DNA of 46,266 bases from a virus (taxonomy: Duplodnaviria > Heunggongvirae > Uroviricota > Caudoviricetes), in IMG/VR virus record IMGVR_UViG_2671180743_000008. The stretch is one strand, 5' to 3'. A program made the translations under genes and the position numbers. Below the pieces are notes generated by a model. It was not told the DNA's origin and searched no databases. It saw nothing but the letters and a program-made list of their open reading frames with translations. Each line of letters opens with the position of its first letter. The first letter of the stretch is position 1. Shown piece by piece: positions 33-29,450 of this stretch.

Positions 33-497
33 TTAGATTCGTCTCGCCTGCCAGAAATTTTTCTGCCAATAGACATTATCAAGTGAGGAACGCATCACTC
101 CCTTGCTGGTAGAGGCGTGGATAAATTGGTTGTTGGTATCGTAAATACCTACATGCAAACCATTTTGTCCGGAACCCGTTTTGAAAAAGACCAGGTCACC
201 AGGCAGCAACTCGTCTTTATCAATTTGCGTGCCGATAGAGGCTTGTTCTTTGGTTTCTCGGGGCAGCTGCAAATCGAAACGATCGCGCATCGTTACAACC
301 ACAAATCCCGAACAGTCCACACCGCGCCGCGTCATGCCACCATAACGATACGGCGTGCCATGCCAGCTTTGTAGCTGGTCGTTCAAACCGGCAATAACGG
401 TAATCGAATCAGAAAGTCTGGCATTTGGCGGCGGTGCTTTATGGTGGCTACACCCGGCCAGAAACAGTGCTGTGATCAAAATAAGGCAGAAACGCAT
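33..497 (-). CDS. nlpC: NlpC/P60-family lipoprotein (peptidoglycan endopeptidase)
   Basis: 154 aa; lipobox LAGC near N-terminus; translation matches what I recall of E. coli NlpC almost residue for residue; sits downstream of btuD as in E. coli. Confidence 0.9.
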   Translation of the reverse strand: MRFCLILITALFLAGCSHHKAPPPNARLSDSITVIAGLNDQLQSWHGTPYRYGGMTRRGVDCSGFVVVTMRDRFDLQLPRETKEQASIGTQIDKDELLPGDLVFFKTGSGQNGLHVGIYDTNNQFIHASTSKGVMRSSLDNVYWQKNFWQARRI

Positions 498-574
498 TCC
501 GTACGGTTCCTCTGTTTTTTATTCTTGCATTAATTTAGCGTCGTAATTACCCGATTTTCAAGATACTAATGAAA

Positions 575-1324
575 TCAGATGGTCGAAATCAGCATTCTGT
601 GACCTTCGATATCCAGACGGCGAAAATTCATCCCATAGGCCTGCGCCAGATTTGGCGGCGTGAGCACCTCTTCTCTGCGTCCACTGGCCAGCATTTTTCC
701 ACCTTTTAGCAACCACGCCCGATGCGCATGACGCAATGTGTGGTTGAGATCGTGACTGCTCATCACAATCGCCAGTCCTTGCTGACACAGAGCGCTCAGA
801 ATTTTGTCTAACGCACTTTGTTGCGCAACATCAAGACTGTTCATCGGCTCATCAAGAAGCAGCAATTGGCCTGCGGGATTGGCTTGTGGTGTGATTTGCA
901 GCACCACCGCAGCAAGACGTACGCGTTGCCATTCACCGCCGGAAAGTTGATTGGTGCTACGTCCGAGTTTGTCATCAAGAGCCAGCGCCCCTGCGACATC
1001 ATTCAGTAGTTCGGTACGCGTTTTATCGTGCTGATGCAGTGTCAGATAGTGCCAGACCGGCATTGCAAACGGCGGCGTCTGCTGTTGTGAAAGATAGGCG
1101 CGATGCAGCGCGAGTTTTGTTGCGGACCATGCTTCCAGTGGTTGCCCCGCGAACTGAATACTTCCCTTACCGCTGGTCATTCCGGCCATTCGTGCCAGTA
1201 AGGTACTCTTACCCGCGCCATTCGGCCCCACCAGGTGCAGGATCTCCCCAGCCCGAACCTCGCCAGAAAGTGGCCCCAGGCGGGTAGATTCCGCAACATC
1301 CTGTAACTGCATCACAATAGACAT
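575..1324 (-). CDS. btuD: Vitamin B12 ABC transporter ATP-binding subunit
   Basis: 249 aa; Walker [13 protein letters not shown] signature LSGGEWQR, Walker B LLLLDEP; position between btuE and nlpC. Confidence 0.93.
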
Positions 1325-1875
1325 TATTTTGCCAACGCCAGTTTAATGCTTTCCATCACAATGGGGTCTTCCGGCGTCATATCCGGGGAAAAACGCTGGA
1401 TGACCAATCCGTCCCTGCCAACTAAAAATTTCTCAAAATTCCATAAAATATCATCAGGGTACAGCGGTGCACGACCTTTGCTGACCATACGGGCATAGAA
1501 TCCGCTCTCTTCCGGCGCGACTGCGGTCGGCGCTGCGGCAATCAATTTTTGATACAGCGGATGGCGTCCTTCGCCGTTAACTTCAATCTTACTGAACATC
1601 GGGAACGTCACCCCCCATGTGGTGGTACAGTAAGTTTTAATCTCTTCATCGCTGCCCGGTTCTTGTTCCAGAAACTGGTTGCACGGGAATCCCAGCACCA
1701 CAAAACCTCGATCGGCCCAGGCTTTCTGAATATTCTCCAACTGCTCATATTGCGGCGTTAAGCCACACTTTGAGGCGACATTGACAATCAACAGCACATT
1801 ACCGGCGTACTTCTCCAGCGTGGTCACTTCACCGTCGATATCTTTCACTACGGTCGTCAGAATGGAATCTTGCAT
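1324..1875 (-). CDS. btuE: Glutathione peroxidase-family protein
   Basis: 183 aa; GPx-type motifs ([18 protein letters not shown]); start overlaps btuD stop; canonical btuC-btuE-btuD order. Confidence 0.92.
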
Positions 1876-1937
1876 CGTTTCTCCTGGGTGTGGTCAGTAA
1901 AAATCTTAGCTTTTAATCATAGACCGTCTTTTTGCGG

Positions 1938-2918
1938 CTAACGTCCTGCTTTTAACAATAACCAGATAAACACCGGCGCACCCAACGTTGCGGTGACCAC
2001 GCCAATAGGCAGCTCTGCGGCAGCTAATGCCAGGCGCGCTACAATATCGGCCAGCAGCACTGCGCTCGCCCCTGCCAGCGCGCAGCCGGGAAGTAATACG
2101 CGATGATCGGTTAAACCACACAACCGAAGAATATGTGGGATCACCAGACCAATAAAGCCGATAGCACCCGCCAGCGCCACACTGACGCCAACCATCCAGC
2201 CGGTCGCTGCCACCAGCACATTGCGCCAGAACCACAGGGGTAAACCCAGTTGCCGCGCCGAGATCTCGCCAAGTGCTAACATATTCATCGGCCTGGACTG
2301 ACAACAGATCCACAACAACACGGGGATCAATGCCAGCATCAGCCAGCTTTGCCGCCAGTCTACGCCGCCAAAACCGCCCATCATCCAGTACATCAGCTGA
2401 CGTAAATCAACAGAGGTGGAAAAGTAGATAGCCCACGTCATTAGTGCGCTACAGATAATCCCTAATGCAACGCCAGCCAGCAATAACCGACTGGTCGAAA
2501 GATGACGACGGGCGAAACGTAAGAGTATTAAAGTGATGATAAGCGCGCCAGCAATCGCACACAGCCCTAGCGCCCAGTTGGGGAGTTGCCCTTGCCCAAG
2601 CAATACCGCGGCGATAAGCCCCACGCCTGCGCCGTTAGAGACGCCAAGTAGTCCAGGTTCTGCCAGAGGATTTTCAAACAACGCCTGCATTACAGCGCCG
2701 GATATAGCCAGCGCCGCACCAACCAGCAATACAGCCAGCGTACGTGGCAGGCGAATTTGCCAGACGAACAGTTCGCCACGAGGAGTAAACCAGTCACCTG
2801 GCGAAATCCATTGTTCACCGGCGCAAAGGCTTAAGAGAAGCGCCAGCAGCATCAAAACTGACAGGCATAATAACCAGCGAATATTTTGTCGCTGTTGTTG
2901 GCGGGCAAGTGTCAGCAT
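1938..2918 (-). CDS. btuC: Vitamin B12 ABC transporter permease
   Basis: 326 aa, highly hydrophobic multi-pass membrane protein of FecCD/BtuC type; first gene of the btuCED operon. Confidence 0.92.
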
Positions 2919-3110
2919 GGTATCCGTTCTGCTGAAGTGTCATGGCGTTGATTTTACGGTGACTCTTCGACAGTGAAAAGAAAAAAGGCCGCAGAGCGGC
3001 CATAAACACAAACAAAAATCAATAAGTTAGGTAATTATCAAAGACTTACAGACACACAAAAACACAGCCAACCACAACAAATAACAGAGATGTGGTCAAT
3101 TTGTGGATCA

Positions 3111-3665
3111 TCAGCCAACAAATTTAGCAACAAATACAGCAACCGCCGCTGTGAAAATGGTTGTGCACACTGGCACAATAATGCCACTCCAACGCCACTT
3201 CGTATTATCATCAACCTTGTCAAACCGCCGATTCATCTCATCCATAATCTTGTCAAAGCGTTTATCCATCGCTTCGGTAAGCTCACCCTTCAGGCTGTTA
3301 ATGTCTGATTTGAGCTGCTCTTTCAGGTTAGCTGTATCAGATTTAAGCTCACCTTTCAGATTCGCAATATCGCATTCAAGATCACCTTTCAGATGTGCTA
3401 TGTCTGCTTTGAGTTCACCTTTCACCTCACCAACATCGGCTTTAGTTGAGAGGTTTGTAGTGCGTTCAGCAAGCGTCGCAAGGTCGTTTCTTGTTAGCGA
3501 TAAATCACCTTCGAGCCGCTCAATTCGCCTTTCAAGTTTATCTGACATTCCGCCTCCACTACTGCCGCCATCGCCACCATGATAAAGCACATCACGCTCA
3601 GAATGCGACACACTACCTGCTGAATTACCGAAAAGATTTCTTGCTACATTACCCATTATCACCAT
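3111..3665 (-). CDS. Hypothetical coiled-coil protein with C-terminal transmembrane anchor (prophage cargo)
   Basis: 184 aa; Gly/Ser-rich N-terminus, repeated LKGELKxDIAxLKG-type heptad/11-mer repeats, single C-terminal hydrophobic helix (IIVPVCTTIFTAAVAVFVAKFV); overlaps upstream ORF by 17 nt; no family recognised. Confidence 0.6.
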   Translation of the reverse strand: MVIMGNVARNLFGNSAGSVSHSERDVLYHGGDGGSSGGGMSDKLERRIERLEGDLSLTRNDLATLAERTTNLSTKADVGEVKGELKADIAHLKGDLECDIANLKGELKSDTANLKEQLKSDINSLKGELTEAMDKRFDKIMDEMNRRFDKVDDNTKWRWSGIIVPVCTTIFTAAVAVFVAKFVG

Positions 3666-4149
3666 CCTGCGCTTTGTCTTTCTCCAACCACTTCAGCACC
3701 GCAGACGTACGATAAAGGCTCAGGTAACCACAATTCAGGCAATGCAGCGTGTAATAAGTTTTGCGCATATCAGGTATGCTCTTAACATCACCCAAAAAAG
3801 CATAAGATACATAATGCTTTATGTTCTCTTTAATTAACTCACTCTGTTCCTCCAGGGGTAGATTGTTAAAATTTTCTGGTTTCTTATTTTTATCCCAGCA
3901 AAGATCCATACTTTCTGGAACAGATAATCGCGACGATCCACATGAAGGGCAGACACTGGAGACCCCCTTCTCAGACAAGAAACGGAAGAAGATTTCTGGC
4001 GTAATCTCCATCAGCCGCTCTTTATGTTTTTTGACACGACTCATCGACTTCTTATTGATTTCATCAGCTTCTTCTTTGCATTTATCTTCTATATATTTCG
4101 ATAGTAAATAGTCATATAACTCTTTTTTTGTAGGTTTTTTTATTTCCAT
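3649..4149 (-). CDS. Hypothetical zinc-ribbon protein (prophage cargo)
   Basis: 166 aa; Lys/Glu-rich; CPSC ... CLNC cysteine pairs suggest a Zn ribbon; markedly AT-rich codon usage compared with flanking prophage genes; starts 3 nt after the integrase stop. Confidence 0.6.
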   Translation of the reverse strand: MEIKKPTKKELYDYLLSKYIEDKCKEEADEINKKSMSRVKKHKERLMEITPEIFFRFLSEKGVSSVCPSCGSSRLSVPESMDLCWDKNKKPENFNNLPLEEQSELIKENIKHYVSYAFLGDVKSIPDMRKTYYTLHCLNCGYLSLYRTSAVLKWLEKDKAQDGDNG

Positions 4150-4151
4150 AG

Positions 4152-5129
4152 TTACATTCCTCCCAAGGGATTAAACCTCACCGCATCCTGCAAGTAATCC
4201 GGCGCAAGATGGGCATAAATCATCGTTGTCTGAATCTTTGCGTGCCCCAGAATTTTCTGGAGCGTCAGAATATTGCCGCCGTTCATCATGAAATGACTGG
4301 CGAAGGTGTGGCGCAGCGCATGAACAGCCTGGCCGTCAGGAACATCAGGTGCGACCGTTTTGATGACATCGCGAACCAATGAATAATCCAGCGTCGGAAA
4401 CACCAGTTTCCCGCCCCGTTTTTTGATCTTTTCAAACAGGCTTTCAGAAATAGGAACGGTACGGTTTTTGCTGTTCTTCGTTTTTGAAAAAGTGATTCGA
4501 CAATGAAGAACACGGCGCTGCTCCAGTGCCGCTACCTCGCCCCATCGCGCCCCGGTCGACAGAAGGATTTCGACGGCCAGCCGTTCATCGGGATTTTCAG
4601 CCAGTGCATCCAGCAACTGAACACATTCAGACTTACTCAGATATCCCATTTCACGCTCGTTAACCTTCATTCCTTTAAGGCCTTGAACGGGGTTATCGTT
4701 AAGAAAATGGCCGGATGAGATGAGTGCGGTAAACATCGCGCTTAACGCCCCAATCTCTCGATTTATGGTGCTGGGCTGTATCCCCTGCTCTATCCTGGAC
4801 ACACGTAGCTCGGTGAGCATCGTTGTATTAAGTTTATGCACGCACGGGTCATCCATTGCCTCACTCAAGCGCAGCAATTTAAGGCGCGTGTTATGCCCTG
4901 ACTTCATTAGCTGGCCGTGGTATTTCCACCACAAGTCAATAAGCACTGACAGCGGACGGCGATCAATGGAGTTTCCTTTCCACTCATTGTTATGCTGTTG
5001 CGCCAGCACCCACCGCTCATATAAAACTGCATCCGATTTCGTTTTAAATTTTTTGCGAATGCGTTTGCCTTTACGCCCCTCAGGACGCATGTCAAGAAGA
5101 TACCCTCCCGGAATTGATTTTATGCTCAT
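4152..5129 (-). CDS. int: P2-type tyrosine integrase
   Basis: Start chosen at MSIKSIPGG (the ORF track extends to 5279); catalytic-region motifs HALRHTFASH and LGHAKIQTTMIYAHL; C-terminus FNPLGG typical of P2/186 integrases. Confidence 0.9.
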   Translation of the reverse strand: MSIKSIPGGYLLDMRPEGRKGKRIRKKFKTKSDAVLYERWVLAQQHNNEWKGNSIDRRPLSVLIDLWWKYHGQLMKSGHNTRLKLLRLSEAMDDPCVHKLNTTMLTELRVSRIEQGIQPSTINREIGALSAMFTALISSGHFLNDNPVQGLKGMKVNEREMGYLSKSECVQLLDALAENPDERLAVEILLSTGARWGEVAALEQRRVLHCRITFSKTKNSKNRTVPISESLFEKIKKRGGKLVFPTLDYSLVRDVIKTVAPDVPDGQAVHALRHTFASHFMMNGGNILTLQKILGHAKIQTTMIYAHLAPDYLQDAVRFNPLGGM

Positions 5130-5178
5130 TCGTGAAGCCCCAGCGTTACAAGACCACCATGCCCCCAGCGTTCCATGA

Positions 5179-5490
5179 TTAGCCGGGCTGTGTGCCAGTC
5201 TTGCGGGATTTTTGAGAAGACGATGTGTTTTCTGGCCCATCAGGGGAGAGAGAAGGACTGATCTGCCCAGCAGCCTCATTTGTTTCGTTACTCATCAACC
5301 ACGTAGTGTATTTTTTAAATTCCGGGTGCATTGTGATTTTCAGTAAAACCTCCGTTCCCACACCTCGAATACCAGTCTCGTATTGCTTAACCGTACCAAC
5401 CGCAATACCTATTGAATCCGCGAACTTTGCCTGACTAAGCCCCTCAGATTCTCGAATTGCTTTTAGCTTCTTTGATATCTCTATTGACAT
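5179..5490 (-). CDS. C: P2 C-type immunity repressor (HTH)
   Basis: Start chosen at MSIEISKK (103 aa); HTH segment LSQAKFADSIGIAVGTVKQYETG; C-terminal ...SSSQKSRKTG resembles the P2 C C-terminus; upstream of and co-oriented with int. Confidence 0.8.
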   Translation of the reverse strand: MSIEISKKLKAIRESEGLSQAKFADSIGIAVGTVKQYETGIRGVGTEVLLKITMHPEFKKYTTWLMSNETNEAAGQISPSLSPDGPENTSSSQKSRKTGTQPG

Positions 5491-5585
5491 GGTGTGCACC
5501 TGAATACTATATTGGTTATCAGTTGAGTACCACTTGACGCTACAAAGAGCCACAAATAGCACCAGATTGAATAGGTTATCACACC

Positions 5586-5864
5586 ATGGCAAAAGTCCTT
5601 AACACATACGAACAAGCGGATTTTGAGCGTTTGGCGGCGTTCTACCCATACCGTAATGAACATGGGCTACCGGTACTTGAAGAAAGCCTAGAGGATTATG
5701 CGAAACGCACAAATCAAAGCATTCTCGCTGTAAGAAGGCAGGCTGATAGATCGGTAATTCCCGTTACTCAAGAAGGAAGAAACACAAAACGCAAAGTAAA
5801 TCTCTTCGCAATTTTCCTGAAAACCATCAGAAACGCAGAGAAATACGTGCAGATGACAAAATAA
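5586..5864 (+). CDS. Cox/Apl-like early regulator (assigned by position)
   Basis: 92 aa ORF transcribed divergently from the repressor, first gene of the early operon as cox is in P2; sequence itself is not recognisably P2 Cox. Confidence 0.5.
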   Translation: MAKVLNTYEQADFERLAAFYPYRNEHGLPVLEESLEDYAKRTNQSILAVRRQADRSVIPVTQEGRNTKRKVNLFAIFLKTIRNAEKYVQMTK

Positions 5865-5878
5865 CGAGGTGTCATTTT

Positions 5879-6217
5879 ATGCTGAAGCAACGCCGTAATT
5901 TTTGTACCGGAACAGAACGCCACGCTAACCGTTTCACTACCAGTGCATCACGCAGCAACATCCGCTACAGCCTGAGTGATACACACGCAACGCCGGATGG
6001 CTACCCAGTAAAACAAATCGGCGAGCACGCCTGGCTGATTGAGAAAGCTGGAATCGTGATCCACAAATGCCCACGCAATCCGTTTACCGGAAACCGCATT
6101 TTTGCACTGAGCTGTGGCGACAATCAGTTCGGGCAGGATTTCACATTATACGAAGCACTTCGCACGGTTGATCGTCTGCTTCGCGGGCAAAGTTTTATTA
6201 AACAGGCTGATTTATAA
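5879..6217 (+). CDS. Hypothetical early-region protein
   Basis: 112 aa ORF in the early operon; no family recognised. Confidence 0.5.
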   Translation: MLKQRRNFCTGTERHANRFTTSASRSNIRYSLSDTHATPDGYPVKQIGEHAWLIEKAGIVIHKCPRNPFTGNRIFALSCGDNQFGQDFTLYEALRTVDRLLRGQSFIKQADL

Positions 6218-6227
6218 CAGGTGCTTT

Positions 6228-6515
6228 ATGACCAAAGACAATGCACAAGGTGTATTTATCCGTTTTATTGATTTTCGCGGTGAACTGTTATTACGTGCAT
6301 CCGCTATTGACGGAGTGACTCCGGCGGGTAAAAACGGAGCCGACGAAGCCACTTACGTTTATCTGAACGGCACGCGACTGCTTGTGGAACTTCCGTACCA
6401 GACCGTACGAGAAATCATCAGCGAAGATGAAAAGGCACGCCAGGTTAATGGCGATGAACCCTATATCGAAATTATTTGTATGGATTCAGAAGCTGAAATA
6501 CAGAAAGCAGATTAA
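6228..6515 (+). CDS. Hypothetical early-region protein
   Basis: Start chosen at MTKDNAQGV (ATG at 6228) inside the track ORF 6114..6515; 95 aa. Confidence 0.5.
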   Translation: MTKDNAQGVFIRFIDFRGELLLRASAIDGVTPAGKNGADEATYVYLNGTRLLVELPYQTVREIISEDEKARQVNGDEPYIEIICMDSEAEIQKAD

Positions 6516-6523
6516 AGGGCGTT

Positions 6524-6769
6524 GTGATGGGCAAAGAATATAAAACTCTCATTAACAAAGCACTTGAGCGTTTTTATTTTCGCTTAAGTGCATCAGGCGC
6601 TCATGCTGAACGTGCGGCCCGTGACTCATTGACCAGAGCAATCCGAAGTCTGTATGACGTGGCTTTTTACGCTGATGATCTGGATGCACTTAACGAACTT
6701 TCCGAGCTGATCTGTGCCGCAGAATGCGGGGAACATATTGAACCGTATAAGCTGGGAAATATCGCATGA
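6524..6769 (+). CDS. Hypothetical early-region protein
   Basis: 81 aa ORF packed tightly after the previous gene. Confidence 0.5.
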   Translation: MMGKEYKTLINKALERFYFRLSASGAHAERAARDSLTRAIRSLYDVAFYADDLDALNELSELICAAECGEHIEPYKLGNIA

Positions 6770-6879
6770 GTATATTTATTTCATGGCTTGTTCTGATTAT
6801 TTCGGTGGTCTGCGCCATTGGGATTATGCGAATTATTAATTCAGTAAAAAAGATTGAACGCTTTTTCACTGAAGAATAA
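6766..6879 (+). CDS. Possible small membrane protein (37 aa)
   Basis: ATG at 6766 overlaps the previous stop (ATGA); translation MSIFISWLVLIISVVCAIGIMRIINSVKKIERFFTEE is one hydrophobic helix; too short for the ORF track. Confidence 0.3.
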   Translation: MSIFISWLVLIISVVCAIGIMRIINSVKKIERFFTEE

Positions 6880-6965
6880 CCGCGCAAATAAGACCCCAGG
6901 TTAAATAAGAAAATGTGAAAACAATCCGCATTCGCGGAGGTATTCGCACACGCCAAGGAGGCGTA

Positions 6966-7169
6966 ATGGCAATTAAGCATTTTCCTGTCGTTCGTTTCAC
7001 CTCCAGAGGACGTGAATACGAAGTTGACGAACGCCTGATTACCACAATCGACAAACACCGTTCAGAAAAGGATGCACATCATATCTATCTCACTGACGGC
7101 ACTTACTTCTGCGCCACCAACGTGGTGCAGGTGAATCTTATCAGACAGGTACAGGAGTCACGCAGATGA
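6966..7169 (+). CDS. Hypothetical early-region protein
   Basis: Start at MAIKHF, preceded by GGAGG; 67 aa. Confidence 0.5.
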   Translation: MAIKHFPVVRFTSRGREYEVDERLITTIDKHRSEKDAHHIYLTDGTYFCATNVVQVNLIRQVQESRR

Positions 7170-7411
7170 CCATTCTGGACTACATCGCTGCCAATCCGGG
7201 TTGTAGCAGTGGAGAAATCGCCGCAGCACTGAATACACCAACCACAACCATTAATGCGGAGCTACGCCGTCTCTGGCGCAGCGGTTTAGTCACAAGAAAA
7301 GAGCGCAAAACAGGCGGTCGCTTTTCTTATCAGGTAAACCTGATGCCGTTTGGGTGTAGCAACCCACTAACCCAGATGTTCAACCAGCTACTGAGGGAAA
7401 TCAGAGCATGA
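7166..7411 (+). CDS. Small winged-helix DNA-binding protein
   Basis: 81 aa; SSGEIAAALNTPTTTINAELRRLWRSGLV looks like a wHTH recognition helix and wing; start overlaps previous stop. Confidence 0.55.
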   Translation: MTILDYIAANPGCSSGEIAAALNTPTTTINAELRRLWRSGLVTRKERKTGGRFSYQVNLMPFGCSNPLTQMFNQLLREIRA

Positions 7412-7552
7412 GCACCTCCAACTGCCGGAAACCACGTCGGGCTTCAGCAGCTCATCCGGCAGCAAAACAAACTCCATTAATTCCTGTTCCGGGCCTTTCC
7501 TGCACCTTGCGGCGGGAGGCCTTCGCACATCTGTAACAAGAGGATTGCCGCA

Positions 7553-7918
7553 ATGATTCTCGCCAACGACTTTCTTGAATACCTGCTCAACACAGAGCGT
7601 GATCTTGCCGCTCGCGTGCGTGATCGTTATGACATGTACCTGAAATCCCTGCCTGTACCGCAGCTCGCTGACGGAAAGATTGTTATTGATGGTCGCTACA
7701 TGATTGACAGCCACGAGGGAAATTACAGGCTTTACCGCATTGAAGGTGGCACCCCGTCCGTTATTGGCATTTACCAGCGCCCATCCTCTGCAATCGTCGA
7801 TGTGATTGCCGACAGCATCCGCATCACACATCGCCATGCCGACACAGAAGACACCGTGCTGGAAATTCAGCGGCTGGCTACAGTCTGCCGCGACACCCTG
7901 AATGGCATGACGAAGTAA
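7553..7918 (+). CDS. Hypothetical protein upstream of replication gene A
   Basis: 121 aa ORF; no family recognised. Confidence 0.5.
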   Translation: MILANDFLEYLLNTERDLAARVRDRYDMYLKSLPVPQLADGKIVIDGRYMIDSHEGNYRLYRIEGGTPSVIGIYQRPSSAIVDVIADSIRITHRHADTEDTVLEIQRLATVCRDTLNGMTK

Positions 7919-7924
7919 ATCACT

Positions 7925-10747
7925 ATGACGGCAGAGTACATCAGGGACTGGCAACAACCGCGCCACGCAGTGGGGCGTGAAGGAACGGGGATCCCCGCTC
8001 CTGAATCCGCGCTTTCCTCCTGGCTGGATGCCCACCGGGCAGAGAACGAGCGCCGCCAGGAAATGGCTGATGCGGCGTTCTCCGCCACGCCACTGGGCAA
8101 CCTGATTAATAAAAGCCTGGACGCACAGGAAAAACAGGACAAAACCATCACACTGGCAGGAGACGCCAGAAAACAGGCACGCGGCGCGGTGGATGAAGCC
8201 ATGGCCTCGCTGCGCCTGCTGCCGTCCTATCTGCGCGATCCGCTTATTCGCCACCTCTCCTTCCTGCGCAAAAAACAGGAAGCCGATCGCCGGAAAGGCA
8301 AAAAGAGCTGGCAGGCGGAACGCTATGCACGCGGAACCCTGCGCAAAATATTCGAACGTCTGGATCGCACTGACGGACACTGGCTGACACCGGGTTATCG
8401 CTCCCTTGCCGGACGTGAACGCCTGGACGATTTGCTTTACCTGCCGCAACTCAACAAACACCAGATACAGACGCTGGCCACCATGACGGCGGCGATGTTC
8501 AGCAGCACCTTCGAAAAACTCTGCGATGGTTTTGGCGCGACTGATGGCGAGCTGACCATGGATGTAACGCTGAAGGCGTATCAGATGCTGGCCCGCATGG
8601 CGTTACACTTACACGCCATGCCTCCGCATTATGACGCACTGACAACAGACAAAGACCGGAGGCACGAACCGGACACAGAACTGCTGCCGGGCGCAATCCT
8701 TCGCCTGACCTGTGCGGAATGGTGGAAACGCAAACTGTGGCTGTTACGTTGCGAGTGGAGAGAAGAACAACTTCGCGCCGCCTGTCTGGTTTCCAGAAAA
8801 ACATCGCCCTATCTGAGCCAGGACGCGTTAAGCGAGTTTCGCGCACAGCGCGAGAAAACACGCGATTTCCTGAAAAGTTTCATGCTGGAAAATGAAGACG
8901 GGTTCACGATTGATCTCGAGACGGTGTATTACGCGGGAGTAAGTAACCCGGTTCACCGTAAGGCAGAAATGATGGCCACCATGAAGGGGCTGGAACTTCT
9001 GGCCGAAGCCCGTGGCGACAAAGCGGTGTTTCTGACTGTCACCTGCCCGTCAAAATACCACGCCACAACGGAGAACGGTCATCCGAATCCCAAATGGAAC
9101 GGGGCCACAATGCGCGACTCCAGCGATTACCTGGTTAACACGTTTTTTGCGACGGTCCGCAAAAAACTGAACCGCGACGGCCTGCGCTGGTATGGCATCC
9201 GCACGGCGGAGCCTCACCATGACGGCACCGTGCACTGGCATATGATGGTCTTTGCTCATCCGGAAGAAATCGACACCATTGTGTCCCACACCCGCGATAT
9301 TGCCATTCAGGAAGATCGTCACGAGCTGGGCGATGACATAACTCCGCGCTTTAAGGCGGAGTATGTAGACGGCTCAAAAGGCACGCCAACCAGCTACATC
9401 GCCACCTACATCGGGAAAAACCTGGACAGCCGCGCCGTGGATGGCATCGACCCGAAAACGGGCAAGCCACGCGTTGACCACGAAACCGGAAAATCAATGG
9501 CCGAGAGCGTGGAACGCGCCATCGGCTGGGCGCGCCTTCACCGGGTCCGCCAGTTCCAGTTCTTTGGCATCCCCTCCCGCCAGGTATGGCGTGAACTGCG
9601 CCGCCTTGCCAGCCAGATGGCACGCAACCCGGAAGGCCCGCAACGGCTGAAGGATGACGCAATGGATGCGGTTCTTGCCGCCGCTGATGCCGGATGTTTT
9701 GCCACCTACATAGAGAAACAGGGCGGCGTACTTGTTCCACGCAAAGACTACCTGATTCGCACCGCCTACGACCTCGCCGATGAGCTGAACGATTACGGCG
9801 AACAGAGCGTACAGATTTACGGGATCTGGTCACCACTCATCGGGGAATCCTCCCGTGTGTGCACGCATCCGGATAACTGGAAGCTGGTAAGACGCAAACC
9901 GGAAGCGGAAGACAGCGCCCGCGAAAATGGTTTTGACCTTCAGGGCGGCCCTGCCGCCCCTTGGACTCGTGGCAATAACTGTCCCCGTGTACAGGAAACG
10001 GACAACAACGGGACAGAACAGCCGGAAGAACGGCCAGCACCGTGGCCGCAGCTCCCTGACGGCGTTGATGTGGATGAATGGATGCGCTCACTGAAACGGC
10101 ACGAACGCCGGGCGCTGATGCGTTCGCTTCGTGACAAACAGGCAAAAAACAGCAGTGATGAAATGCAGAGCTGGACACAGAGCCGCAAACAGCAGCGGCC
10201 TTTGCCTGATAACCACGAATTACTCGCTAAAGAATGGCGGGAGTCTGCTGAATCTCTCGGCCTGCATATCGGTGAACAACAGATGCAGCACCTGTTACGG
10301 GGCGGCAGTCTGTACGTTGACGGCAGCATCATTGCACCGCAGGGATTTGAAATTGTACGCAAACCGGATACCCGCCCGGACAGCCGAATCACGCAGCTCT
10401 GGCAGCGCCTGAGCCGTAATCATGGCGTAAGCAGCACGGAGATCCGCCATAACCCGGTCGCCAGCTATCTGACACAGCTGGGGGCATCAGACCCTGAAGC
10501 CGCCGCACGCCTGGCATCCACACTTCAGCAGGACCAGAACACCATGAAAACACCCGTTACCGTGCTTTCTGACATGCTGCGCGCCATCCGCGACGCAGAG
10601 CACGCACAGAGAATCAGTGAAACCACTGAACGCGCCCGCCGCAAAGCAGACCTGCTGCGGGGTGGCCTGACCAGTGGAAACAAAAAACAGACAGAAACGG
10701 GACTCACGAATCCCGTAAATGAGCAAAAAACGCGCAGCGATATATGA
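7925..10747 (+). CDS. A: P2 gpA-type rolling-circle replication initiator (endonuclease)
   Basis: 940 aa; HUH-type motif VHWHMMVF and tyrosine pair YIATYIGKN as in P2 A; longer than the P2 protein as I recall it, with a charged C-terminal tail. Confidence 0.85.
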   Translation: MTAEYIRDWQQPRHAVGREGTGIPAPESALSSWLDAHRAENERRQEMADAAFSATPLGNLINKSLDAQEKQDKTITLAGDARKQARGAVDEAMASLRLLPSYLRDPLIRHLSFLRKKQEADRRKGKKSWQAERYARGTLRKIFERLDRTDGHWLTPGYRSLAGRERLDDLLYLPQLNKHQIQTLATMTAAMFSSTFEKLCDGFGATDGELTMDVTLKAYQMLARMALHLHAMPPHYDALTTDKDRRHEPDTELLPGAILRLTCAEWWKRKLWLLRCEWREEQLRAACLVSRKTSPYLSQDALSEFRAQREKTRDFLKSFMLENEDGFTIDLETVYYAGVSNPVHRKAEMMATMKGLELLAEARGDKAVFLTVTCPSKYHATTENGHPNPKWNGATMRDSSDYLVNTFFATVRKKLNRDGLRWYGIRTAEPHHDGTVHWHMMVFAHPEEIDTIVSHTRDIAIQEDRHELGDDITPRFKAEYVDGSKGTPTSYIATYIGKNLDSRAVDGIDPKTGKPRVDHETGKSMAESVERAIGWARLHRVRQFQFFGIPSRQVWRELRRLASQMARNPEGPQRLKDDAMDAVLAAADAGCFATYIEKQGGVLVPRKDYLIRTAYDLADELNDYGEQSVQIYGIWSPLIGESSRVCTHPDNWKLVRRKPEAEDSARENGFDLQGGPAAPWTRGNNCPRVQETDNNGTEQPEERPAPWPQLPDGVDVDEWMRSLKRHERRALMRSLRDKQAKNSSDEMQSWTQSRKQQRPLPDNHELLAKEWRESAESLGLHIGEQQMQHLLRGGSLYVDGSIIAPQGFEIVRKPDTRPDSRITQLWQRLSRNHGVSSTEIRHNPVASYLTQLGASDPEAAARLASTLQQDQNTMKTPVTVLSDMLRAIRDAEHAQRISETTERARRKADLLRGGLTSGNKKQTETGLTNPVNEQKTRSDI
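10694..10719. repeat. Palindromic element copy 1 (AACGGGAcTcacGAATCCCGTAAA)
   Basis: Imperfect palindrome ACGGGA...TCCCGT inside the 3' end of gene A; a near-identical copy lies 73 bp downstream. Confidence 0.6.
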
Positions 10748-10766
10748 AGCGCGCACAAAACAGGCA

Positions 10767-10793
10767 AAAACGGGATTTCAGAATCCCGTAAAC
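10767..10793. repeat. Palindromic element copy 2, immediately upstream of parM
   Basis: AAAACGGGATTTCAGAATCCCGTAAA between the gene A stop and the parM start; possible operator or centromere-like site. Confidence 0.6.
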
Positions 10794-10823
10794 GATTAAT
10801 TAATCAACATAAGGAAAAGCGAC

Positions 10824-11783
10824 ATGAAAATTTGTATCGACGACGGCTCCACCAACATCAAGCTGGCATGGACTGAGAACGGCGAACGCCGCAACGCCAT
10901 CAGCCCGAACAGCTTCAAGTCGGAATGGTCTGCGCCGTTCGGTGGCATGCAGCCCGCGAACTACATGCTTGATGGCGTGCGCTATGGTTTTGATCCGGTC
11001 AGCGATCGCTTTGTCCAGACAACCGACACGCAATACCAGTACAGCGATGTAAATGTCATTGCCATTCATCACGCGCTGGTCAAATCAGGCATCACGCCAC
11101 AGGAGGTGGATGTGGTTGTCACCCTGCCACTGAGCGAGTATTTCGACACAAACGCACAGCCGGACATGGCCAACATCAACCGCAAAAAAGCGAACGTTAT
11201 GCGCCCGGTGGAGTACCAGAACGGCGAAGCATTCACTATCCGTAACGTGCGGGTTATGCCTGAATCCATTCCGGCTGGCTTTAAGGCACTGGCTGACATG
11301 AGTCCGTTTGAATCCCTGCTGATTGTGGATTTGGGCGGAACCACGCTGGATGTGGCAAAGGTTCAGGGGCAACTGGCAGGTATCAGCCAGGTGTTTTGCG
11401 ATCCACACGTAGGCGTTTCTCTGATGGCCGATGCCGTACTGTCGGTGATGGCCACTAACGGTATGCGCACCAGTCACCACATCGCCAATACCATTATCGA
11501 ACATCGCCATGATGAAGCCTGGCTGCGCCAGCACATCCACAATGACGCGCATTACGCCAGCCTGATGGCGGTTATTCGTGAAAAGGAAGAAACACTGAAA
11601 CAACGCGTGATCCGCGCGCTGGCGGGTTTTTCGGGTTACGGGCGGGTGATGGTTGTCGGTGGAGGGGCGGAGATTGTGGCACCCGCTATCCGCGAAGCCT
11701 GCGGAGTTAATGCGACTTTCATCGCGGACGGGGTGCCACAGTTTGCTCTGGTTAATGGGCTGTACGCAATGGACAAGGAGTAA
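10824..11783 (+). CDS. parM: ParM/StbA-family actin-like partition ATPase
   Basis: 319 aa; N-terminus MKICIDDGSTNIKLAW, internal YSDVNVIAIHHAL, VMPESIPAG, LIVDLGGTTLDVA, GVSL, FSGYGRVMVVGGGAE and C-terminal LVNGLYA all line up with plasmid R1 ParM as I recall it. Confidence 0.85.
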   Translation: MKICIDDGSTNIKLAWTENGERRNAISPNSFKSEWSAPFGGMQPANYMLDGVRYGFDPVSDRFVQTTDTQYQYSDVNVIAIHHALVKSGITPQEVDVVVTLPLSEYFDTNAQPDMANINRKKANVMRPVEYQNGEAFTIRNVRVMPESIPAGFKALADMSPFESLLIVDLGGTTLDVAKVQGQLAGISQVFCDPHVGVSLMADAVLSVMATNGMRTSHHIANTIIEHRHDEAWLRQHIHNDAHYASLMAVIREKEETLKQRVIRALAGFSGYGRVMVVGGGAEIVAPAIREACGVNATFIADGVPQFALVNGLYAMDKE

Positions 11784-11787
11784 ACCA

Positions 11788-12099
11788 ATGACGACACCAA
11801 CCAGACGGATAAGTTTCTATCTGAAGCCTGCGGCCGTCAAGAACGAAAGCGAAGCATGCGCCTGGCTGGGCAGCCTTACACCAGAAGCCCGCAAAAGCGG
11901 CCAACGCGTGGCTTTTCTGGCCGGGCTGGCACTTCTGAAAATGAATCCAGCAGAGGCTTACCGACTGGCTGCATGGGCTGACGATGAGGCGTTATCGGTG
12001 ACACAAACCAGGACAGAACGCCCCGTGCCACAGCCAGTACCAACCGCACAGATAACCAGTCAGATAGCAGGGAATATCCGGGCATTATTTCCTGAATGA
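11788..12099 (+). CDS. parR: ParR/StbB-like partition adaptor
   Basis: Start at MTTPTRRISFYLKP, 5 nt after the parM stop; N-terminal ribbon-helix-helix-like segment and C-terminal LFPE resemble R1 ParR; follows parM as in the parMR operon. Confidence 0.65.
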   Translation: MTTPTRRISFYLKPAAVKNESEACAWLGSLTPEARKSGQRVAFLAGLALLKMNPAEAYRLAAWADDEALSVTQTRTERPVPQPVPTAQITSQIAGNIRALFPE

Positions 12100-12159
12100 C
12101 GAATTTGACGGCTTTTAATTTTATCGGGGTGCACTGTCGCCCCGCACGAGGAAAACACG

Positions 12160-21495: not shown

Positions 21496-21949
21496 TTCCC
21501 TGCGTGAAGCCATGACCCGTTCATGCCGGTGGTGTCATGCCAACCCGGAAAAATTCACCATTTTCGTGGAGAGCGGCAACATTGAAACGACCGGAGAAAC
21601 CCCATCGTTTGTTTACCGCTATCAGATAGTGATGTTTGTCATGGATTACGCCGGAGAGCTGGACGACCTCACGCTGCCGCTGCTGGCGTGGTTATCCGAA
21701 AATCAGCCACAGTTGTTGCTCAATCCGGAGCGTAATCAGGACATCAAATTTTCCGCCGTTATCAATGACGATGACAGCGCCGATCTCCTGTTTACGCTCC
21801 CCCTGCGGGAACGCGTTCGCATCACGCGCAGCAGTCAGGGCACACCGCAGGCAGAACACCTGCCGGAGCCAAAACCCCGCCTGCCCTCTTCCGAAGGCGA
21901 CTGGTCGCATGTATTCCAGGATGTGACGTGGGGGGAAAGCGATGGATAA
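21482..21949 (+). CDS. R: Tail completion protein R
   Basis: 155 aa; size and position match P2 gpR. Confidence 0.8.
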   Translation: MLKTDSLREAMTRSCRWCHANPEKFTIFVESGNIETTGETPSFVYRYQIVMFVMDYAGELDDLTLPLLAWLSENQPQLLLNPERNQDIKFSAVINDDDSADLLFTLPLRERVRITRSSQGTPQAEHLPEPKPRLPSSEGDWSHVFQDVTWGESDG

Positions 21950-22577
21950 GGCATTCACCCGCGTGGATGAAACCTTTGAGGCTATCCGCGACAGCCTGAA
22001 TCAGCAGGCCATTAATAACATCGCCAGAAAGCTGGCACAGGATTTACGCCGCGCCCAGCAGGCGCGTATCCGGTCACAGAAAGCGCCGGACGGGACCGCA
22101 TGGACACCACGCAGACGCCGCGTAACCCGGATACAGGAGCGCATTCGCTTTATCTGGAATAACGAAGCACGCACGCTGAAAAACTGGCATCACGACACGG
22201 GGAAATACGGGCGAACCATCACCGGGTGGGATGAGGATAAAAACAATATCCGCACGTTTTACCGGGATGACATCGACCGTTTTCTGGAAATACGCACCCG
22301 GCGCATCAACCAGGACAGCACCAGGCGCGTCTCCATGTTCGTAAAACTGCGCACCGCCCGCTACCTGAAAGCCCGTGCAGATGCTTCCGGTGTGACGGTG
22401 GGTTACAGCGGCGTGGCCGCACGTATTGCACGCGTTCATCAGTTCGGTGAGCGCGATCAGGTTGCGCCGGGCATTTTCACCGATTACCCGGTACGTGAGC
22501 TGCTGGGTATCAGCCAGGCAGATGAGCGCCTGATTTATAACACGGTGCTGGGCCGGATTGCGGAGGCTGTACGATGA
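21942..22577 (+). CDS. S: Tail completion / virion morphogenesis protein S
   Basis: 211 aa; overlaps the R stop; P2 gpS position. Confidence 0.75.
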   Translation: MDKAFTRVDETFEAIRDSLNQQAINNIARKLAQDLRRAQQARIRSQKAPDGTAWTPRRRRVTRIQERIRFIWNNEARTLKNWHHDTGKYGRTITGWDEDKNNIRTFYRDDIDRFLEIRTRRINQDSTRRVSMFVKLRTARYLKARADASGVTVGYSGVAARIARVHQFGERDQVAPGIFTDYPVRELLGISQADERLIYNTVLGRIAEAVR

Positions 22578-23155
22578 GCGCAGAACTCATGCGACTGCTG
22601 AGCAATATCATCCGCACCGGGATCATCTCTGAAGTTGATGAGGAATCCTGGTGCGTGCGCGTTCGCAGCGGCGAACTGGAAACAGGCTGGCTGCGCTGGA
22701 ACACCACGCGCGCGGGAGACTTCAACGTGTGGTTTCCGCCATCACCAGGCGAACAGGTGGCAATTGCCTGCATCGGCGGCAACCCGGAAACCGCCATGAT
22801 AATCGGCAGCCTGTGGAGTGATGCCATTCCGGCACCCGGCAAAAGCCTGAAAGAAATCGTGGTCAGCGCGCCGGACGGCGCGGTGTTCCGCTACGACGCG
22901 GACGCAGGCGCACTGAGCGCAAGCGGCATGAAAACGGCCACTTTGCAGGCATCCATCAGCGTGACACTGAACACGCCTGTCGTGGAATGCACAGACCTTC
23001 TGAGAACAGCGACGCTTGACGTCACAAAAGGGGGAACGATGAGCGGCAATATCACGCACAGCGGCGGCGATTTCACCTCAAACGGCATCACAGTGCATAC
23101 GCATAAGCACGGTGGCGTTAAAGGTGGCAGCGATTCGACAGGAGGCCCGCAGTGA
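22574..23155 (+). CDS. V: Baseplate assembly protein V (spike)
   Basis: 193 aa; start overlaps S; P2 gpV position. Confidence 0.85.
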   Translation: MSAELMRLLSNIIRTGIISEVDEESWCVRVRSGELETGWLRWNTTRAGDFNVWFPPSPGEQVAIACIGGNPETAMIIGSLWSDAIPAPGKSLKEIVVSAPDGAVFRYDADAGALSASGMKTATLQASISVTLNTPVVECTDLLRTATLDVTKGGTMSGNITHSGGDFTSNGITVHTHKHGGVKGGSDSTGGPQ

Positions 23156-23502
23156 CAACCCGCTACACAGGAATGAACCCGGACGGGACGGGAAACCTGA
23201 ACGATATGGCGCACCTGAAACAGTCAGTCAGGGACATCCTGACCACCCCGCTGGCAAGCCGGGTTATGCGACGGGAATATGGCAGCCTTGTGCCTGATTT
23301 GATTGACGAACCCATGAATAACACCACGCGTCTGCAATGCATGAGTGCTACCGTGATTGCACTGACACGATGGGAACCACGCATTGCCCTGAACGCCATC
23401 GACGTTGTCTGGAAGGCAGGAGGCCACGCCGGGGTGACGCTGTCGGGCACTGTCATGCAGACCATGCAGAATGTTGAATTAACCATCACGCTGAGGGAGT
23501 AA
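23152..23502 (+). CDS. W: Baseplate protein W (gp25-like)
   Basis: 116 aa; start overlaps V; P2 gpW position. Confidence 0.85.
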   Translation: MTTRYTGMNPDGTGNLNDMAHLKQSVRDILTTPLASRVMRREYGSLVPDLIDEPMNNTTRLQCMSATVIALTRWEPRIALNAIDVVWKAGGHAGVTLSGTVMQTMQNVELTITLRE

Positions 23503-23505
23503 ATC

Positions 23506-24402
23506 ATGCCTGCCGTTGACCTTTCCCAGTTACCGGAACCCGCCATCATCGCGGAGCCTGACTTTGAGGCAATTCTGGCTGACACAAAGGCCATGATGAT
23601 TGCAGCTTATCCCGCCGAACAGCGTGAAGTCGTCTCCGCCGCACTGGAACTGGAATCGGAACCCCTGAACGTTATCGCTCAAACCATGTCGTTTCGTGAA
23701 ATGCTGTTACGCCAGCGGGTCAATGAGGCCGCACGCGCCTGCATGTTGAGCCACAGCGCCGGAACAGACCTGGACAACCTCGCGGGCAATATGAACACAA
23801 AGCGCCTGGTTATCACTCCGGCAACGGATACCACCGACGTGGTGATGGAGAACGACACCTCGCTGAGACTGCGGGCGCAGCGGGCGTATGACGGCCTGAG
23901 TGTTGCAGGCCCGTCAGGCGCATACGAGTATTTTGCCCGCAGCGCCAGCGGTCTGGTGCGCGATGCGCGGGCCATCAGTCCGTCTCCGGCAAATGTGACG
24001 GTTTCCATCCTGTCCACTGAGGGCGACGGCACAGCAACGGAGGCGTTGCTTAATACCGTTCGCGCCGTTCTGAATGCAGAGGATACCCGCCCGGTGGCCG
24101 ACCGCCTGACCGTACAGAGTGCCAGAATCGTGACATGGCGGCTGAATGCAAAACTGTACTTTTACCCCGGTCCGGAATCCGAACCTATTCTGGCTGCGGC
24201 TGAATCGTCGTTCAGGAAGTGGCTGGCTGAGCAGGGGCTTATCGGTCAGGACGTGGCGTTGTCCGCCATTGCTGCCGCACTGCATGTGCACGGTGTGCAA
24301 CGCGTGGAGATAATCGAACCCACACAGAATATGGCCATCAGCGACATACAGGCGGCGCGCTGTGAGTCATTCACCATCAGCGAAGGTGGGCGTAATGAGT
24401 AA
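23506..24402 (+). CDS. J: Baseplate assembly protein J
   Basis: 298 aa; P2 gpJ size and position. Confidence 0.85.
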   Translation: MPAVDLSQLPEPAIIAEPDFEAILADTKAMMIAAYPAEQREVVSAALELESEPLNVIAQTMSFREMLLRQRVNEAARACMLSHSAGTDLDNLAGNMNTKRLVITPATDTTDVVMENDTSLRLRAQRAYDGLSVAGPSGAYEYFARSASGLVRDARAISPSPANVTVSILSTEGDGTATEALLNTVRAVLNAEDTRPVADRLTVQSARIVTWRLNAKLYFYPGPESEPILAAAESSFRKWLAEQGLIGQDVALSAIAAALHVHGVQRVEIIEPTQNMAISDIQAARCESFTISEGGRNE

Positions 24403-24925
24403 TTCACTGTTACCACCATCAGCCAGCAATTTCATGCGTTGTGCCGAAGCCGTCGGAACACGCATTACAGACATTCCGGCAGACCTCAACACGCTGTGGT
24501 CGCCGGACACCTGCCCGGTGCATCTGCTGCCTTATCTCGCCTGGGCGTTTTCCGTTGACCGCTGGGATCGCAACTGGCCGGAAGAGACAAAGCGACAGGT
24601 GATTCGTGATGCATGGCTGATACACCGACACAAAGGAACCATCAGCGCCCTGCGACGGGCCATTGAGCCGCTGGGATACCTCATTCGCGTGTCTGAGTGG
24701 TGGGAGTTCAACGGCGAACCCGGAACATTCAAGATTGATGTTGGCACGCTGGACAGTGGCGTGACGGAGGAAATGTATCTGGAAATGGAGCGGTTGATTG
24801 CTGATGCCCGCCCGGTCAGCCGCCACATGACAGGGCTGAATATCATTCAGGAGATTCAGGGAGATATTTTCGCGGCAGCAGCAACTTACGACGGTGAAGT
24901 CATTACCATTTATCCGGACGATTAA
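24395..24925 (+). CDS. I: Baseplate/tail protein I
   Basis: Start at MSNSLLPP (ATG at 24395, overlapping J); 176 aa, the size of P2 gpI. Confidence 0.85.
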   Translation: MSNSLLPPSASNFMRCAEAVGTRITDIPADLNTLWSPDTCPVHLLPYLAWAFSVDRWDRNWPEETKRQVIRDAWLIHRHKGTISALRRAIEPLGYLIRVSEWWEFNGEPGTFKIDVGTLDSGVTEEMYLEMERLIADARPVSRHMTGLNIIQEIQGDIFAAAATYDGEVITIYPDD

Positions 24926-24927
24926 GC

Positions 24928-26964: not shown

Positions 26965-26965
26965 T

Positions 26966-27493
26966 ATGATGCACTTAAAGAACATAAAAGCAGGTAATGC
27001 TAAAACAGTGGAGCAGTATGAGTTAACAAAGAAGCACGGAGTCATCTGGCTTTACTCTGAGGACGGAAAAAACTGGTATGAGGAAGTGAAGAACTTTCAG
27101 CCAGACACAATAAAGATTGTTTACGATGCAAATAATATTATTGTCGCCATCACCAAAGATGCCTCCACGCTTAACCCTGAAGGTTATAGCGTCGTTGAGG
27201 TTCCTGATATTACAGCTAATCGTCGTGCTGATGATTCCGGTAAGTGGATGTTTAAGGACGGAGCTGTGGTTAAACGGATTTATACGGCTGACGAACAGCA
27301 ACAACAGGCCGAATCACAAAAGGCCGCATTGCTTTCCGAAGCTGAATCAGTCATCCAGCCGCTGGAACGCGCTGTCAGGCTGAATATGGCGACGGACGAG
27401 GAACGCACACGACTGGAAGCATGGGAACGCTACAGTGTTCTGGTCAGCCGTGTGGATACGGCAAAGCCAGAATGGCCACAAAAGCCTGAGTAA
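26966..27493 (+). CDS. G: Tail fibre assembly protein G/Tfa (partner of tip A)
   Basis: Start at [10 protein letters not shown], 2 nt after the H stop; 175 aa; C-terminal 60 residues identical to those of the tfa at 34453..34980. Confidence 0.85.
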
Positions 27494-27498
27494 AAATT

Positions 27499-27518
27499 AA
27501 GGCCCGATATCGGGCCTT
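27499..27518. terminator. Hairpin terminator after G
   Basis: AAGGCCCGATATCGGGCCTT perfect hairpin; a near-identical hairpin recurs at 34985..35004. Confidence 0.6.
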
Positions 27519-27525
27519 ACGCAGT

Positions 27526-28632
27526 GTGAACACCGTTGGCAAATCGGCATTCGTGGAGGCTGTCGGTCGGGCGAGCGATGATGCGGAAGGTTACTTGGAT
27601 TTTTTCAAAGGAGAGATAGGGAAAACACATCTGGCTCAGGAGCTGTGGACGCAGATTGATAACGGTCAGCTTGCGCCTGACCTGGCTGAAATCAGGACGT
27701 CCATTACGGATGTCAGCAATGAAATCACGCAGACCGTCAATAAGAAACTGGAAGACCAGAGTGCGGCAATTCAGCAGATACAGAAGGTTCAGGTTGATAC
27801 AAATAATAATCTGAACAGCATGTGGGCTGTGAAGCTGCAACAGATGAAGGACGGACGCCTTTATATTGCGGGTATCGGTGCCGGTATTGAGAATACGCCA
27901 GCAGGAATGCAGAGTCAGGTGCTGCTGGCGGCAGACAGGATTGCGATGATTAATCCTGCGAATGGCAACACAAAGCCGATGTTTGTTGGTCAGGGCGATC
28001 AGATATTCATGAACGACGTGTTCCTGAAACGCCTGACGGCTCCCACCATTACCAGCGGCGGTAATCCTCCGGCATTTTCCCTGACACCGGACGGAAAACT
28101 GACCGCTAAAAATGCAGATATCAGTGGCAGTGTGAATGCGAACGCCGGGACGCTCAACAATGTCACAATTAATGAGAACTGTCAGATTAAGGGGAAACTG
28201 TCAGCCAACCAGATTGAAGGCGATATAGTCAAAACAGTGGGTAAGGCTTTTCCGCGGGACTCCCGGGCACCGGAGCGGTGGCCATCAGGGACCATTACCG
28301 TCAGGATTTATGACGATCAGCCTTTTGACAGGCAAATTGTTATTCCGGCGGTGGCATTCAGCGGCGCTAAACATGAGCGGGAGAATAACGATATTTATTC
28401 GTCATGCCGCCTGATAGTACGGAAAAACGGTGCTGAAATTTATAACCGTACCGCGCTGGATAATACGCTGATTTACAGTGGTGTTATTGATATGCCAGCT
28501 GGTCGCGGCCACATGACGCTGGAGTTTTCGGTGTCAGCATGGCTGGTGAATAACTGGTATCCCACAGCAAGTATCAGCGATTTGCTGGTTGTGGTGATGA
28601 AGAAAGCCACCGCAGGCATCAGTATCAGCTGA
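27526..28632 (+). pseudogene. Lambdoid host-specificity protein J, C-terminal fragment
   Basis: Open frame starts abruptly right after the G terminator with no plausible start or RBS (first codon GTG); followed by lom, stf and tfa in the lambda order J-lom-stf-tfa; family call from memory of lambda J. Confidence 0.6.
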
Positions 28633-29437: not shown

Positions 29438-29450
29438 TTGGTGGAAAAGT

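Follow-up and report, generated by a model that had tools for sequence, protein, structure and literature searches.

The closest described counterpart of the locus analysed here is the SE11 prophage PP_SE11-4, a P2-like element of 35.8 kb for which Oshima et al. (2008; PMC2608844, Table 2) list a 25-nt duplication and a position 'between btuC and ihfA'; the published description, through which we make the comparison, mentions neither arm sites nor an ihfA terminator as the core of the site. In attachment sites of the P2 type the core is flanked on either side by two or more direct repeats (consensus tgTGGaCa), which are read by the N-terminal domain of the integrase, and the N-terminal residues Y, D and R (as opposed to W, E and Y) have been proposed to discriminate arm binding of the P2 type from that of the 186 type (PMC3448106). 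In the P2 record such repeat pairs, with an 11-bp spacing, are found on both sides of the att region. Phage 186, Fels-2 and SopE-phi integrate into the 3' end of a tRNA or tmRNA, and with the copy of that end that they bring in the structured RNA locus is rebuilt. The himA(ihfA)/btuC spacer has a history of its own as the source of STnc540 in Salmonella, an RNA of about 85 nt on the same strand as both genes (PMC2515195), which was later shown to be a ProQ-dependent, ProQ-associated sRNA made from the ihfA 3' UTR (PMC6315103).

We are confident that a P2-like (Peduoviridae-type) prophage has its left attachment junction, attL, at positions 2919-3110 of the DNA analysed here (46,266 bp, referred to throughout as the window), and that it entered the chromosome at the ihfA intrinsic terminator through site-specific recombination by an integrase. 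The element resembles PP_SE11-4 in being P2-like, in its integration site and in the 25-nt duplication, whose length agrees with that of the core derived independently below, but it differs in size, with about 47 kb between attL and the predicted attR as compared with 35.8 kb, owing to an IS element and a fragment of lambdoid tail genes. It is an ordinary prophage attachment junction of an already published kind, and no gene is disrupted; the anatomy at base level, the connection with the ihfA/STnc540 terminator and an example of secondary-site use are refinements and not a new kind of system. The coordinates of the features are collected in Table 1.

Table 1. Features of the attL region and the adjacent host and prophage genes, in window coordinates.
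Feature	Position	Strand	Remarks
nlpC	33-497	-	
btuD	575-1324	-	
btuE	1324-1875	-	
btuC, vitamin B12 ABC transporter permease; host gene flanking attL	1938-2918	-	326-aa ORF; RefSeq annotation of the L001 and L002 homologues
Native btuC upstream spacer, B arm of attL	2919-2976	-	Identical to empty-site reference
att core AAAGAAAAAAGGCCGCAGAGCGGCC, 25 bp	2977-3001	.	Direct repeat shared with attR and attB
Probable strand-exchange (overlap) segment AGCGGCC	2995-3001	.	ihfA-proximal end of core; position deduced (see text)
Phage P' arm of attL, 109 bp	3002-3110	.	Conserved among prophages at the btuC/ihfA site
IHF-consensus match AATCAATAAGTTA	3017-3029	+	
IHF-consensus match TATCAAAGACTTA	3036-3048	+	
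Two P2-type integrase arm repeats, TGTGGTCA (3091-3098) and TGTGGATC (3102-3109)	3091-3109	+	11 bp start to start
First prophage ORF, cargo	3111-3665	-	Coiled coil and hydrophobic C-terminus (DUF1640; phrog_9415); RefSeq start is window 3548
Second cargo ORF, 166 aa	3649-4149	-	CxxC motifs (phrog_4293)
P2-family tyrosine integrase, 325 aa	4152-5129	-	Pfam Int_N 1.5e-28; Phage_integrase PF00589 1e-19
HTH repressor, C/CI position	5179-5490	-	Pfam HTH_3; RefSeq annotation in L002
cox-position ORF, 92 aa	5586-5864		phrog_11533 its only match
gpA-type replication endonuclease	7925-10747	+	Pfam Phage_GPA 6.6e-131; marks the element as P2-like

A preliminary description of this DNA had placed the start of btuC at 2918, the end of the first prophage ORF at 3111 and the prophage junction in the short interval between them, and these placements hold. 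The btuC start codon ends at 2918, with btuE, btuD and nlpC following on the same strand, the stop codon of the first prophage ORF occupies 3111-3113, and the intervening 192 bp contain spurious short ORFs only. The same description placed ihfA directly upstream of btuC on the E. coli map, which is the arrangement in the uninterrupted K-12-like genome L001, where ihfA ends 100 bp upstream of btuC and is itself followed by pheT. Alignment to this uninterrupted region, the check that had been proposed, gives 100% identity through window position 3001 and unrelated sequence from 3002 onwards. By this comparison 2919-3001 is native chromosome, and the phage DNA within the interval is restricted to 3002-3110. 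The same breakpoint is seen across complete E. coli genomes: the btuC side is matched in 5,426/5,426, the match stops at 3001 in nearly all of those sampled, and just 37 of the 5,426 continue to match within the first prophage gene. A consensus scan finds an identical promoter-like site in the btuC spacer at attL and at the empty site, its hexamers (-35 TTTTCA, 2979-2974; -10 TAAAAT, 2956-2951) being recognized by consensus match only.

The btuC/ihfA site is uninterrupted, with ihfA directly following the core, in 5,118 of the 5,426 genomes. The remaining 308 have an interrupted site, and the P' arm is present in 296 of them, such that one phage lineage makes up nearly all of the occupancy. 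These counts bear directly on the suggestion that the interval could be native chromosome with the prophage boundary elsewhere, since the arm at 3002-3110 is found only in genomes whose site is interrupted. A related alternative is that the junction was produced by homologous recombination or rearrangement, without an integrase, but a 25-bp repeat flanked on both sides by P2-type arm repeats is the mark left by recombination through a tyrosine integrase; we found nothing to support either proposal and consider that both can be virtually dismissed. There is no tRNA at the integration site, and a tRNA as the integration target was rejected on that ground.

The sequence at the breakpoint, AAAGAAAAAAGGCCGCAGAGCGGCC, is present once in the window even when three mismatches are allowed (none expected by chance), as anticipated from the earlier proposal that the right junction lies outside the window. 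The direct repeat that was to be sought at the other prophage end is found in relatives, where the identical 25 bp are present at both attL and attR of O26 RM8426 (L002; 3026 and 38124-38148) and of O127:H6 E2348/69 (L004; 237 and 36696-36720), as well as at attB of L001 (1778-1802). In these two genomes and in O104:H4 (L005), all of which have the same attL, the layout is btuC - junction - cargo - integrase - repressor ... gpD - cargo - ogr - hok - junction - ihfA - pheT, and ihfA lies beyond the second repeat at a distance of about 35-38 kb, which bears out the idea that integration had separated ihfA from btuC. The reported lack of an IhfA-like ORF is likewise supported by tblastn, which yields no better match in the 46,266-bp window than one of 12 aa (E = 2.7), and a tblastn search of the same window gives no match to a PheT fragment. 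The ihfA stop codon is 18 bp beyond the attR copy of the core in the relatives, and neither ihfA nor the upstream region of btuC is damaged by the insertion.

The window ends 190 bp past gpD, and attR was read in relatives, the best record among the 5,426 genomes covering at most 71% of window 27000-46266. Ten contigs (L007-L016) were chosen by an exact match to the tail-sheath protein of the window, and all ten continue gpD - PIN-domain gene - ogr - hok - ihfA - pheT - pheS. One of these, L010, is 99.97% identical to window 38516-46266 and exact over the last 400 nt, and its attR core starts 3,972 nt past the position at which the window ends. We predict that attR of this genome reads ...AAATCAATCAGTTATTG, then AAAGAAAAAAGGCCGC(NN)AGCGGCC, then TTTTTAGTTAGATCAGATTACTCG (the ihfA stop codon). 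In all of the relatives examined, the prophage genes nearest to attR are ogr and a hok/gef-family toxin gene (37719-37859 in L002), both transcribed towards the ihfA terminator.

The core is the intrinsic terminator of ihfA. Read on the minus strand it consists of GGCCGCUCUGCGGCC-UUUUUUCUUU, a 6-bp GC hairpin (3001-2987) followed by a U-tract (2986-2977); it is scored as an intrinsic terminator by the scan, with the hairpin as the centroid fold (-11.6 kcal/mol). The stem at the empty site is longer, reaching 11 pairs through the flanking A5 and T5 runs, as compared with 6 pairs at attL. The A5-hairpin-T5 arrangement of the empty site looks symmetric and a bidirectional terminator was considered, but the scan gives a terminator on the minus strand only. 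An Rfam match to the Histone3 stem-loop at 2982-3026 (18.5 bits, against 34) was set aside as the terminator hairpin fitting a generic stem-loop model. The intact ihfA-btuC spacer is a full-length match to the Rfam STnc540 model (RF02082; 67.4 bits, gathering threshold 38), and in this empty-site match the core hairpin is the central helix. Upon division of the site the score is 43 bits on the attR side and 22.1 bits, under the gathering threshold, for the attL half in the window, indicating that the sRNA-proximal part stays with ihfA at attR, outside the window. Because the GC hairpin and U-tract lie entirely within the core, with the A-tract partner on the ihfA side, the full terminator is rebuilt at attR, and attL retains a 6-bp stem and U-tract before the unchanged btuC spacer. 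Identification of the core as the terminator of ihfA and the STnc540 locus is a small addition and not a new principle, and it is not mentioned in the literature that we consulted on the site. The element is similar to phage 186, Fels-2 and SopE-phi in that integration rebuilds a structured RNA locus with a 3' end supplied by the phage, but the target here is an mRNA/sRNA terminator instead of a tRNA or tmRNA, and the arm repeats are of the P2 type and not tgccGCCActt.

From this arrangement we would expect expression of the host genes to be unaffected by the insertion. An opposing view is that lysogeny alters btuCED expression, or alters the ihfA/STnc540 3' end by way of a phage loop variant, and there are several observations with which this would be compatible: the stem is reduced from 11 to 6 pairs at attL with loss of the A-tract half, the cargo and int genes are on the btuC strand with phage transcription pointing at btuC, the loop variants TA and AT exist at attR, and STnc540 is a functional 3'UTR sRNA in Salmonella (PMC6315103). 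We nonetheless think it unlikely, given that a 6-bp GC stem and the full U-tract (-11.6 kcal/mol centroid) are kept at attL, that the spacer with its promoter-like site is unchanged, and that the whole 11-pair terminator is rebuilt at attR. Nor are the bases of a hairpin loop expected to matter for termination. A further reading starts from the product of ihfA, a subunit of IHF, on which the phage itself probably depends as a cofactor in recombination. In this reading the phage lineage targets the ihfA/STnc540 terminator and substitutes its own copy, occasionally with other loop bases, so that lysogeny could tune the output of IHF or STnc540, or that of btuCED by way of a weaker terminator at attL; we regard this as very unlikely. 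Were it true, recognition of the hairpin would also permit insertion into look-alike terminators in other prophages, as in the contig L020 described below.

The scenario that we favor is one of simple site-specific integration, in which the phage attP would carry a 25-bp copy of the ihfA terminator (the GC hairpin and U-tract) and a P2-type integrase, probably together with IHF, would recombine this copy with the chromosomal one to leave a copy at each prophage end. At attR the full terminator is rebuilt beside ihfA, along with the 3' end of the ihfA mRNA and of an STnc540-type 3'UTR RNA, and at attL the hairpin and U-tract should stop transcripts of the integrase and cargo genes before they enter btuCED. 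The two repeats of the P' arm would serve the N-terminal domain of the integrase, with two candidate IHF sites available in the same arm. Both products of recombination retain a terminator, and ihfA and btuCED are undisrupted.

The position of strand exchange within the core can be narrowed by variation in the two hairpin loop bases (2993-2994), which are the host-type AG in 33/33 attL copies with E. coli flanks and which vary in two of 14 attR copies (TA in the O104:H4 attR and AT in the L007 attR). The TA pair is absent from all empty attB among the 5,426 genomes, where the best full-length match has one mismatch; the 61-nt loop-variant query used also matches ordinary sites and shows only the absence of a full-length 100% match, and its 17 matches at 99% or greater identity are candidate attR copies only. 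If the attR loop variants are phage-borne, then the attR bases to the left of the exchange point are phage-derived and exchange occurred to the right of the loop. The two variant attR copies are thus suggestive of strand exchange within AGCGGCC, and overlaps of seven nucleotides are normal among tyrosine recombinases. At the secondary site in L020 the junction has its break where it is seen at attL. A further IMG/VR contig, L025 (1-140), has this phage arm next to a btuC spacer that is diverged, presumably reflecting use of the same site in another Escherichia lineage or species; its attL hairpin loop differs (GCGAAGC), which fits the idea that the attL loop bases are host-derived.

The P' arm is present at full length, once per genome and on the chromosome, with 93-100% identity, in 296 of the 5,426 genomes, and conservation between the prophages stops at 3110, where the cargo genes differ. 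The IHF consensus, WATCARNNNNTTR, has five matches in the 46-kb window, two of which are in this 109-bp arm, and a third IHF-consensus match is located in the attR arm, 3 bp from the core. The two P2-type repeats end adjacent to the first prophage stop codon, and the pattern that they form, TGTGGN6TGTGG, has a single match in the window where 0.14 would be expected; in relatives the attR arm (P arm) carries ATGTGGACACACAGTGGAAC. On the strength of these motifs we predict that IHF and Int bind the P' arm. The organization closely follows that of P2, with two TGTGGaCa-type repeats 11 bp apart in each arm, about 190-200 bp between the pairs across the core, an intergenic target instead of a tRNA, and ogr and int on opposite sides of attP. 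It departs from P2 in the core and host site, and in the two cargo genes that separate the P' arm from int, which follows the arm directly in the P2 record. We found no match to a contiguous attP in 50,697 phage records, in IMG/VR or in JGI metagenome contigs, and the attP described here is therefore a reconstruction. A looser attP pattern recovered 30 loci from IMG/VR, consisting of 28 attL with E. coli flanks, the divergent-host attL of L025 and the L020 junction.

The integrase is 49% identical to P2 Int from end to end, with alignment of the R, H-x-x-R, H and Y motifs. At the N-terminus its YLLDMR aligns with YEVDIR of P2, and it has the same Y-x-x-D-x-R residues as P2. The closest integrase in the 50,697 phage records is 56.5% identical, from a Klebsiella record, and judged by such similarity that collection includes no sequenced free phage with this integration specificity, even though about 5.5% of complete E. 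coli genomes carry the lineage. A further difference from P2 concerns the cox-position ORF, which has no similarity to P2 Cox by BLASTP (E = 18) and no Pfam family, and which may encode a different type of RDF.

The cargo slot between the P' arm and int (3111-4149) is variable. The first prophage ORF of the window is present in only 37 of the 296 arm-bearing genomes, and E2348/69 and O104:H4 have instead a single unrelated gene of 131 aa. PADLOC matches of the first cargo protein to LmuB, ZorA and LeoBC (E 1e-3 to 4e-5) all fall on the coiled-coil segment and were rejected as composition noise, and we find no convincing match to a defence system for the cargo genes at 3111-4149. The remainder of the element is P2-like in content, with gpA, portal, terminase, capsid, baseplate, sheath/tube and gpD (from Pfam, and from gene calls in L007-L016), and the annotated prophage region of RM8426 shares 99.4% identity with window 34-12097, later blocks being at 92.7-97%. 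According to the RefSeq annotation of RM8426, gpA is directly followed by genes for a segregation ATPase of the ParM type (10824-11783) and for a small partition/stability protein (region approximately 10824-12148). This pair is also present in E2348/69 and O104:H4, and plasmid-style partition genes are unusual for an integrating P2-like phage.

In the tail region the minus strand encodes FI, FII, E, T and U (39234-44809), whereas V-W-J-I-H-G (21942-27493) and gpD (44835-46076) are on the plus strand; the FI-U and V-G genes are co-oriented in P2, and here FI-U are inverted relative to V-G. RM8426, E2348/69 and O104:H4 have the same tail-gene orientation, which is therefore a trait of the lineage and not a local rearrangement. 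A fragment of lambdoid tail genes at 27526-32207 encodes the C-terminal part of J (27526-28632), Lom (28700-29299; Ail_Lom 1e-125) and an Stf-like fibre (29451-32207), and is flanked by a P2-type pair of H and tail-fibre-assembly genes (24928-27493) and a second H-like fibre gene (32538-34451). Relatives have only H, G and an acetyltransferase at this position, and the fragment was probably acquired by recombination between homologous fibre segments of two prophages. To its right are opposed tail-fibre-assembly genes, at 34417-34980 (plus) and at 35009-35542 and 36915-37583 (both minus), fragments of fibre C-termini at 35695-36306 and 37586-38329 (both minus), and a serine invertase of the Hin/Cin type at 38593-39198 (Resolvase 1.5e-50). 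By its gene content, 34417-39198 is a putative invertible host-range cassette. It is arranged otherwise in L007-L016, where it is often broken by IS3-family transposases.

In L010, gpD and the PIN-domain gene are separated by transposase genes of the IS3 family (HTH_Tnp_1, rve), and the last 57 nt or so of the window (approximately 46210-46266), TAGACTGGCCCCCTGAATCTCCAGACAACC..., have what we take to be a resemblance to the IS2 terminal repeat. With an IS3-family insertion after gpD and the lambdoid fragment, this copy of the prophage may be unable to form phage. The junction could then be a fossil, intact at attL but belonging to a defective prophage that neither excises nor makes particles, with the site no longer functional. 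To the IS2-like element, at the window end and in L010, and the lambdoid J'-lom-stf fragment within the tail-fibre region can be added the lack of any free phage or contiguous attP with the core AAAGAAAAAAGGCCGCAGAGCGGCC in three collections, and we view such a state as possible, if somewhat doubtful. The integrase, repressor, gpA, both sets of att motifs and the 25-bp core are intact and full length, and the IS is intergenic, in a slot that is filled by cargo genes in relatives. Occupancy across many unrelated lineages, together with insertion at a secondary site, further argues that the phage lineage has been mobile recently.

The example of a secondary site is the IMG/VR contig L020, which encodes an integrase 98.8% identical to that of the window and has the same P' arm, joined at 4562-4581 to a different terminator, GAAAAAGGCCGCAGAGCGGCC. 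This sequence sits between the lysis and terminase genes of a lambdoid prophage and is empty in strain UTAK-5 (L047, 9663-9682). The break is right after the hairpin, as it is at attL, and L020 looks like the use of a 20-bp secondary attachment site inside another prophage.

The base-level coordinates of the 25-bp core, the P' arm and its motifs apply to an integration site that is occupied in approximately 5.5% of complete E. coli genomes, and exact prophage boundaries matter at this site, where host btuC could be mistaken for a phage 'auxiliary metabolic gene' through over-extension. The BtuC permease is included as a putative auxiliary metabolic gene in a 2026 survey of P2-like viruses (PMC13100340), and over-extension of the boundary at the btuC/ihfA site is a plausible cause of that listing. 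Among the 30 IMG/VR contigs with the junction (L017-L046), we note that 22 start 68 nt before the hairpin, equivalent to window 2919 and the base after the btuC start codon, and that at least six others run 1.6-4.3 kb into host btuC and/or btuD.
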